Shown here: positions 1,295 through 61,958 of the stretch, in pieces
Layout: every line of letters begins with the position of its first letter
Numbering within the stretch: the stretch's first letter is position 1
Assembly (NCBI GenBank): GCA_965230985.1
Contig: OZ246399.1
Location: 46,564 to 110,563 of the forward strand
Length of the DNA stretch: 64,000 nt
DNA from: an uncultured Candidatus Saccharibacteria bacterium
GTDB lineage: Bacteria; Patescibacteriota; Minisyncoccia; Minisyncoccales; Minisyncoccaceae
Reading direction: 5' to 3'
Position numbers and translations under genes: made by a program
The notes under the pieces: generated by a model
Seen by the model: only the letters and a program-made list of their open reading frames with translations
What the model was told of the DNA's origin: nothing
Databases searched by the model: none

Positions 1295-1504
1295 TTAAAC
1301 TAATAATGATTTTAATTCCTTTACGTCTCCTTCAAGCTTCTCTATTCTTTCTCCGTGGTTAACAACAATTTTATCTAGTTTCTTTTCCATTTTATCTAAA
1401 CGTTTATCTACCCCTTCAAAACGTTTATTAACATTTTTAGTAGATTCTTCAAATTCCTTATGAACCATTATTGCTAAATTATCAATTGTGATGTTTTTTT
1501 TCAT
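1295..1504 (-). CDS. Small coiled-coil protein (69 aa), function unknown
   Basis: ORF with a heptad-like K/E/L-rich sequence. No family recognised. Confidence 0.5.
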   Translation of the reverse strand: MKKNITIDNLAIMVHKEFEESTKNVNKRFEGVDKRLDKMEKKLDKIVVNHGERIEKLEGDVKELKSLLV

Positions 1505-1566
1505 ATTTTTATTATATTCTTCGATTAAAAATTGTCAAATATTTACTAAATTAAACTTTTAATCAA

Positions 1567-1920
1567 TTAAATATCAAAATGTTTTAATAAGTAATCTTTT
1601 ACTATTTTAAAAGTTTCTTGATTTATCTTGCCTATTTTATTAACAAATCTTAAACGATCAAAAGAAACAATATTATAAACTTTTATTATTGAATCAAATT
1701 TGAGACGATTATCTTTATCGGCTTCAATAAAAATATCGTCATCGGTTTTATTATCTAAATTAGAAGTTAATGGTAAAATTGTAACTAAATTGCTTCTCAT
1801 AATTTGTCCATCCGATTCAATCACTAATGCTGGCCTTTTACCCTGATACTCGTGTCCAGAACTAGGATTAAAATCAACTAAAAATAATTCTCCGCATTTA
1901 ATTTCTGGCTCAATTATCAT
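1567..1920 (-). CDS. PemK/MazF-family endoribonuclease toxin
   Basis: GELFLVDFNPSSGHEYQGKRPALVIES...ILPLTSN matches the PemK/MazF signature. The start overlaps the upstream gene by 4 nt (ATGA). Confidence 0.8.
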   Translation of the reverse strand: MIIEPEIKCGELFLVDFNPSSGHEYQGKRPALVIESDGQIMRSNLVTILPLTSNLDNKTDDDIFIEADKDNRLKFDSIIKVYNIVSFDRLRFVNKIGKINQETFKIVKDYLLKHFDI

Positions 1921-2657
1921 AAATTTTCATAATATTCAACTTCTTCTCTTGATATATCCCCTAGGTCATCAAGAATATCCACAGAGGAGGCGTCTCTCAT
2001 TAAGGCCATCTCGTCAGGTTTTTTCATCACCCTAACAACTTTCCCACAAATCAAATAACTATCTTGATCTTTTTTGCTTATATATATAGGAGGAAAATCT
2101 TGACTTGATTCAGATAAAAGAATTATTTGATTATTAGGCTTATCAATATAAAACTTTTTAATATTCACAACTCCATCAATAATAGAAACAACACAATCTC
2201 CGTTTTTAGCGGTGGAACCCTTACTAATAATTACAAAATCTCCATCTTCAATATTTTTATTATTAATCACCGCCCTATTCATAGAATTACCGACAGCTTT
2301 TAAAACAAAAAGTTCTTTAATCTTATTAATTAAATTTTTTTCTAATAAATTACGAGATAATTTTAAATATCCTTCTATTTTTTCATCTGCAAATATTAAA
2401 GCTTGTCCACAATTAGCTGATCCTAATATAGGTAAAGATAATAACCCTGATTTACCAAGCCCTCCTTTCATTTTTTTTGTTTTCTTACCATCAGGAGTCA
2501 CAACTAACAATCCCTTACCAATTAATTGATTAATGTGGTGTTTTATTTTTTGTGGACTATTAGGTTCATGCACAAGTTCGCCTATCTTCCTTAAGGTTAA
2601 ATCTGATAGATTATAACTATCGGCTAATTTTATTAATTTTTCTTGAATAATGTGCAT
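1917..2657 (-). CDS. LexA-like repressor (N-terminal wHTH plus S24 peptidase domain) with an acidic C-terminal extension
   Basis: N-terminal LexA-type DNA-binding region. S24 motifs are GNSM (catalytic Ser) and NIKKF (Lys). About 33 extra acidic residues follow (PDEMALMRDASSVDILDDLGDISREEVEYYENL). Confidence 0.75.
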   Translation of the reverse strand: MHIIQEKLIKLADSYNLSDLTLRKIGELVHEPNSPQKIKHHINQLIGKGLLVVTPDGKKTKKMKGGLGKSGLLSLPILGSANCGQALIFADEKIEGYLKLSRNLLEKNLINKIKELFVLKAVGNSMNRAVINNKNIEDGDFVIISKGSTAKNGDCVVSIIDGVVNIKKFYIDKPNNQIILLSESSQDFPPIYISKKDQDSYLICGKVVRVMKKPDEMALMRDASSVDILDDLGDISREEVEYYENL

Positions 2658-2684
2658 ACTTTAAAATAAGGTTATATTATTGTA

Positions 2685-2713
2685 ATTATATCAATTGCTT
2701 GACGCTTGTCAAG
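2685..2713 (-). promoter_or_regulatory. Sigma-70-type promoter (TTGACA-16-TATAAT) with an overlapping palindrome CTTGAC-N4-GTCAAG
   Basis: -10 at 2685-2690 and -35 at 2707-2712 on the minus strand. The inverted repeat at 2698-2713 overlaps the -35 and is a candidate operator. Confidence 0.5.
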
Positions 2714-2790
2714 TTATTTTAATTATTGACAATATTATTTACACTGCGCCTCATTAAACTCAATAGAATATTCTACTGACTCCTACATAG

Positions 2791-24705: not shown

Positions 24706-24862
24706 TGTCCAGAACCTTATCGTTCGTGTCCTAAACTGTCCTGATTGATTGTCCACAATTGTCCACGATTGTCCAGAAGTTGTCCACATTGTCCAGAACC
24801 GTGTCCAGAATGTCCAGAATAATGTCCACATTGTCCAGAACCGTGTCCAGAATGTCCAGAAT
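24706..24862. repeat. Array of 14 same-orientation TGTCCA(C/G)A-type repeats with spacing of about 10.5 bp
   Basis: TGTCC cores start at 24706, 24727, 24737, 24750, 24760, 24770, 24781, 24790, 24802, 24811, 24823, 24832, 24844 and 24853. The last 84 bp is a 42-bp unit repeated twice. Confidence 0.9.
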
Positions 24863-26280: not shown

Positions 26281-26556
26281 CTATTTATATAAATTATTAT
26301 GATTCCCTAACGTTAAAAAAACAACAACATTTCCGTCGTCTCTAAAAATAGCACGCCAATCACCTGTTATATTTATACTTCTGAGTTGAGAATACTTTCC
26401 CCTTAAAGAATGATTATTAAGCAAAGGATTGAATTTATTAACCAAAAAAAGATTAAATTTGTCTTCGAAATTTCTTTTAATTAATAATGGCGAAGAATTA
26501 AAACGTTTAATAAAATTTTTATTAAATTTGATTTCCATACTTCCTGTTTTTGTCAT
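26281..26556 (-). CDS. RelE/YafQ-type mRNA interferase toxin
   Basis: LNNHSLRGKYSQLRSINITGDWRAIFRDDGNVVVFLTLGNHNNLY fits the RelE/YafQ pattern. Confidence 0.7.
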   Translation of the reverse strand: MTKTGSMEIKFNKNFIKRFNSSPLLIKRNFEDKFNLFLVNKFNPLLNNHSLRGKYSQLRSINITGDWRAIFRDDGNVVVFLTLGNHNNLYK

Positions 26557-26815
26557 TCAGCCATTTTATAGCATCTTTAGCATTATTAAAAGATGGGGAA
26601 ATATTTCCCTCCTTAGCTTCTTTATCAGCCTCCTTGAGCTCATTAATTAGCCAATCTGATGGTTCTTCTAAAGAAATATGTATTTCTTTTTCTATTATAA
26701 ATTTCCTTAAATAAACATTTAAAACATCACTTAAATTAAGACCCATCCGATTAGCTATTTTTTGAGCTTCGCCCTTTACCTTTTTATCTGTCTTAAAATT
26801 AACTATTGTGGTCAT
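26522..26815 (-). CDS. RelB/DinJ-type antitoxin
   Basis: MTTIVNFKTDKKVKGEAQKIANRMGLNLSDVLNVYLRKF is a DinJ-like RHH. I prefer the start at M19 of the tracked ORF. Confidence 0.7.
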   Translation of the reverse strand: MTTIVNFKTDKKVKGEAQKIANRMGLNLSDVLNVYLRKFIIEKEIHISLEEPSDWLINELKEADKEAKEGNISPSFNNAKDAIKWLNDKNRKYGNQI

Positions 26816-26834
26816 ACGCTTTATATATACTTTA

Positions 26835-26851
26835 TATATACATTGTATATA
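26835..26851. promoter_or_regulatory. Palindrome TATATACA-T-TGTATATA overlapping a TTGACA-16-TACAAT promoter of the dinJ-like operon
   Basis: 8-bp arms read directly. The -35 lies at 26864-26869 on the minus strand. Confidence 0.5.
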
Positions 26852-26956
26852 TAAATAAAAATTTGTCAAGCTGTAAAAGAAAACGGCCTAAGCCGTTTTA
26901 AATATCTTTATTGATAATTTTTCTTAAATATTATTAAGATATTCAATATCTAAAAA

Positions 26957-27304
26957 TTATATCAACCCAAAACTTATCTCTAATGCTCTATCAACTTTTT
27001 GCATCGATTTTAAATTTAACTCTCCAATTTTTTTAACAAGCCTTTTCTTATCTATTGTTCTTACTTGATTTAAAATAATAACTGATTTCTCGGATAAACC
27101 TCCTTCAGGGGGGATAATTAAAACTTCTGTTGGATAAATAGTATCATCAAAGTGAGAACCAATAGCTGCAACAATCGTTACTGGACTATAATGATTACCA
27201 ATATTATTTTGTAAAATAAGAGCTGGTCTAGTTTTACTAATTTCTGAACCAACAGTTGGATCAAAATTAACAATATATATTTCTCCTCTCTTAGGTGTTA
27301 ACAT
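26957..27304 (-). CDS. PemK/MazF-family toxin (second copy in the window)
   Basis: GEIYIVNFDPTVGSEISKTRPALILQNN...VRTIDKKRL. Confidence 0.85.
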   Translation of the reverse strand: MLTPKRGEIYIVNFDPTVGSEISKTRPALILQNNIGNHYSPVTIVAAIGSHFDDTIYPTEVLIIPPEGGLSEKSVIILNQVRTIDKKRLVKKIGELNLKSMQKVDRALEISFGLI

Positions 27305-27546
27305 GCTTCGTCAATCAAAAACCAATCTTCAGCAACCGATAAATCTCTCTTAGAACGAATAATAGCCCCTTCGCGAAGTTGTTTTTTTAAATTAGCTTGT
27401 CCAACCCCTTCAACATAGAAACGCACTGCCTGATCAACAAATGAACTTCTGGTTCCCTTTTGAGCAATATTATCAAGAAGTTGAATAGTTTTATTAGGCA
27501 AAGTAATATTTATCCTTTTATATTTTGTAGATGTGTTTATTTTCAT
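27298..27546 (-). CDS. Ribbon-helix-helix (CopG/MazE-like) antitoxin
   Basis: RINITLPNKTIQLLDNIAQKGTRSSFVDQAVRFYV. It overlaps mazF by 7 nt. I prefer the start MKINTS at 27546. Confidence 0.7.
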   Translation of the reverse strand: MKINTSTKYKRINITLPNKTIQLLDNIAQKGTRSSFVDQAVRFYVEGVGQANLKKQLREGAIIRSKRDLSVAEDWFLIDEAC

Positions 27547-27552
27547 ATTTTC

Positions 27553-27581
27553 ATGATACACACTATCAATGTGTAAGTCAA
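27553..27581 (-). promoter_or_regulatory. Promoter TTGACT-17-TATCAT placed 6 nt before the antitoxin ATG, which predicts a leaderless mRNA
   Basis: Hexamers read on the minus strand. No SD lies between the -10 and the ATG. Confidence 0.5.
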
Positions 27582-27619
27582 GGGAGTGCACTTAAGAGAC
27601 TGTGCACCCCCACAATAAA

Positions 27620-60323: not shown

Positions 60324-61958
60324 CTAATAACAACCTCTTGCAGTTATGTACGCGTGACAATTATGATTCGGATAATCCATACAACCTTCATATATCAGAC
60401 TGCCACAATTATCACATGCAGTACTACCACATCCAGTACAACAAGCCCAATTATAATTATCACCCGTCATATAAGGCATAGACTCAATAGCATGATTACT
60501 CCAACTATGAGATCCAGCAGTATATGGAATACTATACCCAGCATGCGAATTATGAGTAGTAGAACCACAATAACCACCATATATTGATCGATCAGCAGTT
60601 GTAGTCCAATTTTGATATTGTGTCCATCCAGAAGGACAATCTGGGTAAAGACCATCAACCTGAGTACCAATATCAGTAGTAACCGACCAACTGAACTTAC
60701 AAACATAACACGAACTAACCCAAGTTAACGTTCCGCCAGCACTAGTACATTCATTAAGAGTATGGACATTATTGCATATAATAGGCGGACTTAACTTTAA
60801 GGCAGTACAAGTCTCACTAGTCGTTCCATCGTTCACTCCAGCACAAGTCCAAGTCCAGGGACCGGAACCAGAAACAGAAGAAGCAATTCCAGCAGAACAG
60901 AGATCTGTTGTCGGAACAGAAGAATAATACGAACCATCAGCTGAACCACAGACACCATCTACAGATTTATTAGCAGTACAAGTCTCACTAGTCGTTCCAT
61001 CGTTCACTCCAGCACAAGTCCAAGTCCAGGGACCGGAACCAGAAACAGAAGAAGCAATTCCAGCAGAACAGAGATCTGTTGTCGGAGTAGTATATGAATT
61101 GGTGCCATCAGCTGAACCACAGACACCATCTTCAGTTTTGTTAACGGTACAGGTAGGAATATCCCCAACATATTTTCCTTCACAAGTCCAAGTCCAGGGA
61201 CCGGAACCAGAAACAGAAGAAGCAATTCCAGCAGAACAGAGATCTGTTGTCGGAGTAGTATATGAATTGGTGCCATCAGCTGAACCACAGACACCATTTA
61301 AGGCTCTGTAGGCAGAACAAAAAGCTCTATCTCCACGATCTCCGTCACAAGTCCAAGAGACTGAGGCTCCTTCTTCTGGAAAAACAGGAGTTGTACCATC
61401 AAGCGTTCCTGCCGAACAAAAACTTGTAGCGGTAATAGTAGGCCAATCAGTAGCGCTAGAATTGTTATATCCATTTGTAGAAGTATATTCAGAAAAATCA
61501 CCGCAAGCTCCGTTAACAATAGTACCGATAGTATAATTATCAGTATCACAATTGTATGCATATATATCATTAGGAGCAGGAGTAGAGAGTTTGGCGTAAA
61601 TTTGGCAACTCTTTCCATCTGTTGAAATATAATAATAATAGGTTTCGGGATTAGGATCTGTTGGAAGATTTGTTAAATATTTTTTTAAAAAATCTTCAAC
61701 AACAGAAGAGCAACGAGTAGCCACGTCTCCTCCTCCAATTGTACATCCATTTTCGCCTGTAATAGGCTTGAGGGCATAATTTTCAGAAGAATAAGTAGTA
61801 ACGGCATTGGCTAACAATTCAATGTCTGATTTCCTTTTAACATCTTTTCCAGCATTAACAGAATTATTTAATTGAACAGCTATAAAACCAGAAAGAATAG
61901 AAATAACAACTATTACTATTAGTAACTCAATCAAAGTAAAAGCTTTTTGTTGCGACAT
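60324..61958 (-). CDS. Type IV pilin-like protein with 3-4 Cys-containing roughly 57-aa repeats and a Cys/Trp/His-rich C-terminal domain
   Basis: Prepilin motif QKAFTLIELLIVIVVISIL. Repeats read GVCGSADG...LCSAGIASSVSGSGPWTWTC.G...C. Confidence 0.8.
   Translation of the reverse strand: MSQQKAFTLIELLIVIVVISILSGFIAVQLNNSVNAGKDVKRKSDIELLANAVTTYSSENYALKPITGENGCTIGGGDVATRCSSVVEDFLKKYLTNLPTDPNPETYYYYISTDGKSCQIYAKLSTPAPNDIYAYNCDTDNYTIGTIVNGACGDFSEYTSTNGYNNSSATDWPTITATSFCSAGTLDGTTPVFPEEGASVSWTCDGDRGDRAFCSAYRALNGVCGSADGTNSYTTPTTDLCSAGIASSVSGSGPWTWTCEGKYVGDIPTCTVNKTEDGVCGSADGTNSYTTPTTDLCSAGIASSVSGSGPWTWTCAGVNDGTTSETCTANKSVDGVCGSADGSYYSSVPTTDLCSAGIASSVSGSGPWTWTCAGVNDGTTSETCTALKLSPPIICNNVHTLNECTSAGGTLTWVSSCYVCKFSWSVTTDIGTQVDGLYPDCPSGWTQYQNWTTTADRSIYGGYCGSTTHNSHAGYSIPYTAGSHSWSNHAIESMPYMTGDNYNWACCTGCGSTACDNCGSLIYEGCMDYPNHNCHAYITARGCY
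60802..61314. repeat. 171-bp tandem repeat, three copies, with a mosaic identity pattern
   Basis: Copies start at 60802, 60973 and 61144. Copies 1 and 2 share an identical first 113 nt or so. Copies 2 and 3 share an identical last 120 nt or so. Both comparisons are by eye. Confidence 0.85.

Follow-up and report, generated by a model that had tools for sequence, protein, structure and literature searches.

In the MazE-MazF (ChpA) and Kis-Kid/PemI-PemK systems, a PemK-fold endoribonuclease is encoded downstream of a dimeric DNA-binding protein and coupled to it. The same layout is found in a lexA-mazF gene pair in 64,000 nucleotides (nt) of DNA (the window; contig OZ246399.1, positions 46,564 to 110,563) from an uncultured Candidatus Saccharibacteria bacterium. 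As in those systems, an acidic C-terminal segment is the proposed toxin-binding part and the operon is presumably autorepressed. Unlike MazE and Kis, the protein in the antitoxin position has neither an AbrB/SpoVT nor a ribbon-helix-helix domain, and consists of a 213-residue LexA core with an S24 protease domain, followed by the acidic tail. The comparisons described below make it highly likely that this tail is a portable MazF-neutralising peptide and that the LexA-like protein is the antitoxin for the overlapping mazF. Taken as a whole, the two genes probably form a type II toxin-antitoxin operon without a small MazE, where the part of the antitoxin is played by a LexA-type SOS repressor.

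There is a second likeness to the PanA (Panacea/DUF4065) antitoxins and the NetFlax network (PMC8832971, PMC10440598), where a two-helix C-terminal add-on sits on a scaffold. For one Panacea antitoxin, toxin contact is predicted for the two C-terminal helices rather than for the Panacea domain (PMC10440598). The link goes further, in that the very same tail is found on Xre-Panacea proteins beside the same MazF subfamily in related loci. Unlike in the Panacea systems, the scaffold here would be a chromosomal global regulator with signal-dependent self-cleavage, and the two papers contain no mention of LexA or S24 (PMC8832971, PMC10440598).

The scaffold itself resembles the LexA proteins of E. 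coli and T. maritima in its predicted winged helix and S24 fold, its Ser-Lys dyad, its Ala/Cys-Gly site and its repeated half-sites. It differs from the solved LexA structures by a C-terminal extension of 33 residues and by being co-translated with a toxin. Several growth arresters are under LexA control, such as those of the lexA-sulA operons, yafNO, tisB/istR and Caulobacter higBA, in some species within the lexA operon itself. In those cases LexA only represses transcription, and the effector is dealt with by another antitoxin or by a protease, whereas here LexA would also be the stoichiometric inhibitor. According to an in-silico paper, the TADB entry of a predicted Campylobacter Xre/HipA antitoxin includes an S24-LexA-like domain, which that paper calls only a prediction. 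The full-text literature searched for LexA or S24 together with antitoxins or MazF, a body that does not cover Sanchez-Osuna et al. 2017 on the Patescibacteria SOS network, yielded no description of an antitoxin on a LexA scaffold. As far as this literature goes, such a scaffold would be new among type II toxin-antitoxin systems.

Organization of the lexA-mazF operon

1917..2657, minus strand: lexA-like gene, an open reading frame (ORF) of 246 amino acids (aa) with a predicted N-terminal winged helix-turn-helix, an S24 domain and a C-terminal tail; the proposed antitoxin
1567..1920, minus strand: gene of a mazF/pemK-family toxin, an ORF of 117 aa with a PemK_toxin match
1917..1920, minus strand: ATGA in which lexA stops and mazF starts, giving translational coupling; the gap is -4 in most related loci
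1920..2018, minus strand: C-terminal tail (residues 214-246), PDEMALMRDASSVDILDDLGDISREEVEYYENL, the proposed portable MazF-neutralising module, defined by comparison of homologs

An earlier reading of the window from its letters alone (the original prediction) had placed a 246-aa LexA-like protein where MazE would be expected, with an ATGA overlap between its stop and the mazF start and with no separate small antitoxin ORF. This layout is borne out: the ORF and its Peptidase_S24 match are present, the overlap lies at 1917-1920 and is conserved in relatives (most loci of the MazF subfamily have it with their upstream ORF), and in the ORF list of the window no other ORF of antitoxin size is found on the operon's coding strand.

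The toxin gene product matches Pfam PemK_toxin (PF02452; E 6.3e-23; 81.5 bits, cut-off 23.1) and 18 MazF/Kid/EndoA sequences in the PDB (E 1e-8 to 1e-5). Its Arg in KRPA and its Thr in PLTSN align with the catalytic residues of E. coli and B. subtilis MazF, which in E. coli are Arg29 and Thr52, and both residues are nearly invariant across the subfamily. In one subfamily member (L014:1178-1735), MazF is lengthened to 185 aa by a Cys-rich, zinc-ribbon-like segment at the C-terminus. The LexA-like protein gave no match to the AbrB/SpoVT domain (PF04014) at E <= 1 and, judged by its domains, is outside the MazE family, though it is proposed to work like MazE.

The tail contains 11 acidic and 2 basic residues, with an isoelectric point (pI) of 4.05 against 9.5 for the core. 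It had been described as acidic and probably disordered. The 33 acidic-tail residues are confirmed, and the disorder is not established, because AlphaFold predicts two helices (216-232 and 237-245) at a predicted local distance difference test score (pLDDT) of 64-70, lower than in the rest of the model. Its C-terminus carries the motif ..D-I-L-K-x-L-G-P-I-S-K-E-E-x-D-Y-Y-E-N-L. The best 120 homologs (54-100% identity) are all full length, tail included, and give the tail consensus KKPDEL...RDASA.DILKDLGPISKEE.DYYENL. The tail may resemble the C-termini of MazE, Kis and ChpS, a tentative lead that a comparison of the tail profile with PDB sequences did not bear out.

A 69-aa coiled-coil ORF (1295..1504, minus strand), which the original prediction had named as a protein that might neutralise MazF in place of the tail, was rejected as antitoxin and is not part of the lexA-mazF system: none of 34 related loci contains a homolog, and the ORF has its own 12/12 sigma-70 promoter (1538..1511, minus strand). 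We found no third conserved ORF near the lexA-mazF pair, and no neighbour family occurs in more than 6 of the 34 related loci. The small genome carries several toxin-antitoxin loci. Besides the lexA-linked toxin, the window has a second, canonical MazF (26957..27304, minus strand, 115 aa), which matches B. subtilis EndoA at 1e-29 and whose gene overlaps that of a ribbon-helix-helix-type antitoxin (27298..27591, minus strand, 97 aa), and adjoining it a RelE/YafQ-like (91 aa) and RelB/DinJ-like (115 aa) pair (26281-26869, minus strand). Ordinary systems in this genome therefore keep ordinary antitoxins, and the lexA-linked MazF has none.

One tail on several scaffolds

A homolog search from MazF gave 41 close relatives, and a metagenome scan with an alignment of 7 close MazF sequences gave 80 more loci, some on contigs that duplicate the GTDB set. 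In all, 115 loci of this MazF subfamily were compared, 110 of which have enough upstream DNA to be testable. It turned out that the ORF ending at the mazF start bears the tail motif in every testable locus (110 of 110). The scaffold in front of the tail is LexA-like in 68 loci, while in 36 it is a protein of ~285 aa with an Xre-type helix-turn-helix (PF01381, ~1e-12 to 6e-15) and a SocA_Panacea domain (PF13274, ~1e-17). Two further loci have an 83-aa Phd/YefM-like scaffold (PF02604 at 5.6e-5, which is under its cut-off), and four have small scaffolds matching no family. By this comparison, the tail is located on at least four unrelated scaffolds.

On the MazF tree, the toxins of LexA-type and Panacea-type loci intermingle at many places. 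For pairs of loci with different scaffolds, tail distance and MazF distance are correlated (Spearman r = 0.30), and none of 1000 permutations (mean 0.01, standard deviation 0.06) reaches this value. For instance, a Panacea-type locus (L159) and a LexA-type locus (L037) share 75% identity in MazF and 79% in the tail. As far as sequence can tell, tail and MazF are one unit that is attached to different scaffolds. Since the two travel together in this way, the distribution is the strongest evidence for the tail as the MazF-neutralising element, and the idea of the original prediction that the acidic tail is the part acting on MazF gains strong support both from co-occurrence and from the 110 of 110 loci on four scaffold types. 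The tail would presumably bind MazF physically.

A LexA subgroup (L095, L099, L104) has a different junction between core and tail (NSSFKEL...). In both tail and MazF, this subgroup comes nearest to a Panacea-type locus (L102), an indication that the cassette was fused to lexA independently more than once.

Tails also occur by themselves. A tail search with a 45-column alignment of mixed scaffolds, which is not a census, gave 38 candidates, and all 15 matches are small proteins. The tail-only proteins found with the tail profile have 35-79 aa; one of them (66 aa) is directly followed by PemK, and for another tail-only ORF the distance to a downstream LexA-tail/PemK pair is 360 nt. ORFs of 35-60 aa that consist of the tail alone, e.g. 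MVKNLSKNKIYNLSPKDLAAMQDAAGRDILKEIGPISKEEYDYYKNLK, are located at L164:2395-2541, L168:3001-3147, L170:3001-3180 and L166:3001-3108 (P0162-P0176), and one free-standing tail ORF lies just upstream of NrdR-NrdD. Such ORFs may be spare antidote peptides or remnants.

Tail and MazF among LexA homologs

The LexA-like protein has more than 750 homologs in Patescibacteria, and its close homologs are named Paceibacterota or Minisyncoccales; an identical protein is on record from a 656-kb contig. We scanned GTDB with one genome per species and summarized 80 loci (the best 80 of 267 matches). The acidic-tail class has 37 complete loci, and MazF is directly downstream in 34 of them. Among the remaining three, the contig of L015 stops 83 nt past lexA, L010 has a DinD-like gene in the place of mazF, and only the last 45 mazF codons are left in L005; the latter two are apparently recent losses of MazF with the tail still intact. 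In another ~38 loci the protein has no tail and ends near VIKKPK, at about residue 213, and no MazF was found within 4 kb of these tail-less lexA genes. Four more loci have a basic, diverged tail (DSSAGEILKYGKPI.KVDY..KKKK), none with MazF. Altogether, MazF follows 0 of ~40 tail-less or basic-tail homologs.

The survey of lexA-like/mazF adjacency that the original prediction had proposed is thus favourable to it (34 of 37 tail-bearing loci). It had also named, as an outcome that would speak against the tail's role, the same tail on LexA homologs that never neighbour a toxin; this is not the general picture, given the ~38 orthologs that lack both tail and MazF. Records with a tail-bearing form and MazF carry the labels Paceibacterota, Magasanikbacteria, Buchananbacteria, Portnoybacteria and Altimarinota, and tail and MazF stay associated in lineages with as little as ~47% identity. 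By the alignment of their cores, the lexA-like proteins with tail are orthologous to the tail-less Patescibacteria LexA.

A neighbour-joining tree was built from the shared 212 residues with 200 bootstraps. The basic-tail clade is nested within the tail and MazF group (197 of 200 bootstraps), and therefore MazF was lost there independently and the tail diverged afterwards. The tail-less sequences form a clade in 9 of 200 bootstraps, which is weak, so no more than one event is counted for the division into tail-bearing and tail-less proteins, next to the nested basic-tail clade and the two recent losses. The tail occurs without MazF, but in the testable loci MazF is never seen without the tail. 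This order of loss is as expected if the tail protects against MazF.

It might instead be that the tail has a function of LexA alone, such as a degradation tag or a contact with RecA or the clamp, and that MazF is just SOS cargo neutralised by some other factor, such as the 69-aa coiled-coil protein or an antitoxin encoded at an unlinked site. DinD-like and RhuM/Bro-N-like cargo downstream of lexA where MazF is absent, as well as the existence of orphan tail peptides, would fit such a role. Against this, the tail is absent from the tail-less LexA, and on non-LexA scaffolds it is found only beside this MazF. As for the other factor, the 69-aa ORF is without homolog in 34 loci and has its 12/12 promoter to itself, and no other neighbour is conserved. 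The distribution data largely refute this explanation, and we consider it very improbable.

In loci without MazF, the slot downstream of lexA holds DinD-like, RhuM-like and Bro-N/KilA-like genes (L010:4748-5563; L032:4744-5793; L034:4654-5841; L035:4485-6391). DinD is DNA-damage-inducible protein D, and genes induced by damage seem to gather in this slot as in a hotspot.

Promoter and candidate operator

2712..2707 (-35 box, TTGACA) and 2690..2685 (TG-extended -10 box, TATAAT), minus strand: promoter of the lexA-mazF operon with a 16-nt spacer, 12/12 to the sigma-70 consensus
2698-2713: palindrome CTTGAC-N4-GTCAAG overlapping the -35 box, the lone exact copy in the 64-kb window; probable part of the operator
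2707-2731: outer inverted repeat TGTCAA-N13-TTGACA, the lone exact copy in the window; probable part of the operator

The palindrome across the -35 box, already pointed out in the original prediction, is present at 2698-2713, and the probable operator region (2698..2731) has three GTCAA/TTGAC half-sites. The palindromic arrangement is limited to close relatives (14% of the tail class). The half-sites are found upstream of lexA at 2.1-2.4 per 130 nt in tail-bearing and tail-less loci alike, compared with 0.24 in controls, an enrichment of ~9-fold in both classes. Because both classes share it, this enrichment points to one operator type common to tail-bearing and tail-less lexA promoters, and the operon would be autoregulated. 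According to a paper citing the Patescibacteria SOS work, Patescibacteria LexA recognises a direct-repeat motif. Elsewhere in the window, matches to the direct-repeat operator TGTCAA-N4-TGTCAA occur at chance level, so no regulon members are assignable there.

These half-sites bear on the possibility that the gene pair is mainly regulatory, where tail-bound MazF would set the SOS threshold by co-repressing or by modulating LexA cleavage, and toxicity would be secondary or lost. The toxin acts as a co-repressor in classical MazEF and other type II systems, and the several half-sites at lexA promoters could be bridged by a LexA2-(MazF2)2 complex. However, the catalytic Arg and Thr and the whole fold of MazF are conserved, members of this MazF subfamily are also paired with small antitoxins of the ordinary kind, which is what one expects of an active toxin, and its absence wherever the tail is absent is the signature of a harmful protein. 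A mainly regulatory pair is therefore improbable in our view, and MazF is treated below as a toxin that the tail of LexA would hold in check.

In many Patescibacteria, the 130 nt upstream of lexA contain exact DnaA-box-like sites, TTATCCACA / TGTGGATAA (L004, L005, L030, L032, L034, L040, L044, L045, L048, L052, L055, L060, L071, L078 and L079). These sites hint that DnaA may influence lexA expression, or that a replication origin is near.

LexA fold and predicted self-cleavage

2463..2657, minus strand: predicted N-terminal winged helix-turn-helix (about residues 1-65), from AlphaFold secondary structure and Foldseek
2034..2432, minus strand: Peptidase S24 domain (residues 76-208; Pfam PF00717, E 2e-18, 66.6 bits against a cut-off of 23.3)
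2406..2411, minus strand: predicted self-cleavage site Cys83-Gly84, within the invariant A-N-C-G (residues 81-84)
2283-2285, minus strand: catalytic Ser125 (in GNSM), invariant in 99 unique homologs
2157-2159, minus strand: catalytic Lys167 (in NIKK), invariant in 99 unique homologs

Among the family models that the original prediction had proposed as a check, Peptidase_S24 (2e-18) and PemK_toxin (6e-23) matched and LexA_DNA_bind did not: the Pfam LexA_DNA_bind domain gave no match to the LexA-like protein and is on record for two homologs. The N-terminal domain was assigned from the predicted structure, whose secondary structure fits a winged helix. The AlphaFold model (mean pLDDT 79.8) has a beta-rich S24 core and an N-terminal domain of three helices and a hairpin (helices 3-14, 22-28 and 35-47; strands 51-53 and 60-62). 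Its best PDB matches in Foldseek are full-length LexA from Thermotoga and E. coli (3k2z, 3jso, 1jhh; E ~1e-9 to 4e-10), with alignments that span ~220 columns and include the N-terminal domain. The protein belongs to a divergent, lineage-specific LexA family.

The S24 Ser in GNSM and the Lys in IKKF, both foreseen from the letters, turned out to be Ser125 and Lys167, invariant among homologs. Together with Cys83 and Gly84 they are also invariant in the 57 unique tail-bearing homologs, while the 38 tail-less homologs have Cys or Ala at position 83, followed by Gly. A Cys-Gly cleavage site is known from UmuD. Since the cleavage site, Ser and Lys are all invariant, self-cleavage is probably retained.

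Another explanation would grant that the tail neutralises MazF and reduce LexA to a scaffold for DNA binding and dimerisation, by which a selfish toxin-antitoxin cassette is autoregulated, with no role for DNA damage or self-cleavage in toxin control. The same cassette is carried by the protease-free Xre-Panacea and Phd-like proteins and by tail-only peptides, it appears to hop between scaffolds, and cleavage does not detach the tail. On the other side, the cleavage site and the Ser-Lys dyad do not vary in the 57 tail-bearing proteins, the scaffold is orthologous to the tail-less LexA and has the same promoter half-sites, and the association with MazF persists across distant lineages, all of which indicates that the scaffold still behaves like a working LexA. 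Besides, any cleavage would necessarily alter the expression of the operon, and probably the half-life of the antitoxin. We regard a scaffold without a damage response as unlikely.

Proposed mechanism

With a cleavable LexA as antitoxin, the operon could work as follows. The last ~30 residues of LexA would bind and neutralise the endoribonuclease MazF, the product of the gene that overlaps lexA on its downstream side, and if the complex is built like MazE2-(MazF2)2, two MazF dimers would be bound per LexA dimer. LexA, possibly aided by bound MazF, would repress its own promoter through the GTCAA/TTGAC half-sites, and probably also the rest of the small Patescibacteria SOS regulon. The response to damage is the least certain part. 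Upon DNA damage, RecA filaments would stimulate cleavage at Cys83-Gly84 and the operon would be derepressed. E. coli LexA fragments undergo degradation by housekeeping proteases. The S24-tail fragment may become a substrate of such proteases here, so that the antitoxin is drained and stable MazF builds up, and derepression with ongoing cleavage of new LexA would shift the ratio to free MazF while RecA filaments last. The outcome would be a reversible growth arrest based on RNA cleavage during repair, in the role of the SulA-type checkpoints. Once the RecA filaments are gone, intact LexA would re-accumulate, bind MazF again and restore repression.

The complete chain from DNA damage through RecA and LexA cleavage to the toxin is a real possibility, to which we give just short of an even chance. 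In its widest form, the proposal is that the master SOS repressor of many Patescibacteria is a stoichiometric antitoxin whose RecA-triggered self-cleavage derepresses the operon and unleashes MazF, by means of a plug-in tail known from at least four scaffolds. In this form it is tentative, and we lean somewhat towards doubting it. The recA gene is indeed located at the opposite end of the window, where the original prediction had placed it (63299..>64000, minus strand, running off the window).

Several points weigh against this account. Cleavage at residues 83/84 is predicted to cut off the DNA-binding domain and to leave the tail on the S24 fragment, so the release of MazF would need an extra step, either degradation of the fragment or a conformational effect. 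The NCBIfam lexA model (TIGR00498) aligns with residues 32-213 at 81.7 bits, which is under its equivalog cut-off of 110.95, and the recA promoter lies beyond the window edge. Searched against PDB sequences, the tail profile had only chance-level matches (a cytochrome b5-like protein, a ribosomal protein) and found no MazE, Kis or other antitoxin. MazF has an overall pI of 5.3 and is not basic, so there is no simple charge complementarity with the tail. Three tail-only mini-ORFs (L164, L168, L170) have no adjacent MazF. Moreover, the two large classes, tail with MazF and neither, may be separable by a single evolutionary event.

The physiological trigger of chromosomal type II toxins has long been disputed, and stress-induced proteolysis of antitoxins is contested. 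An antitoxin with a signal-dependent cleavage domain of its own makes toxin activation by RecA filaments directly testable. If the proposal is true, the trigger of inactivation would be contained in the antitoxin's own polypeptide, independent of Lon or Clp, and the episymbiotic Patescibacteria with their reduced genomes would have a DNA-damage checkpoint that acts by RNA cleavage without SulA-like proteins. A global regulator would also join the list of antitoxin scaffolds, and a short portable peptide inhibiting one MazF subfamily would be a possible tool. The lexA-tail/mazF arrangement is widespread among Patescibacteria.

Other features of the window

An RNase P RNA of the bacterial class A (120 bits) is located at 946-1265 on the plus strand. 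At its 3' side, a hairpin with a T-run (~1268-1293) could terminate transcription from both directions. On the plus strand at 24750-24775, there are tandem TTGTCCAC repeats (TGTCCACAATTGTCCACGATTGTCCA), which look like degenerate DnaA boxes and could be an origin or a regulatory site. At 60324-61958 on the minus strand, there is a 544-aa protein whose N-terminus (FTLIELLIVI) is like that of type IV pilins and which contains a Cys-rich repeat (GVCGSADG..TTPTTDLCSAGIASSVSGSGPWTWTC) in three near-identical copies.

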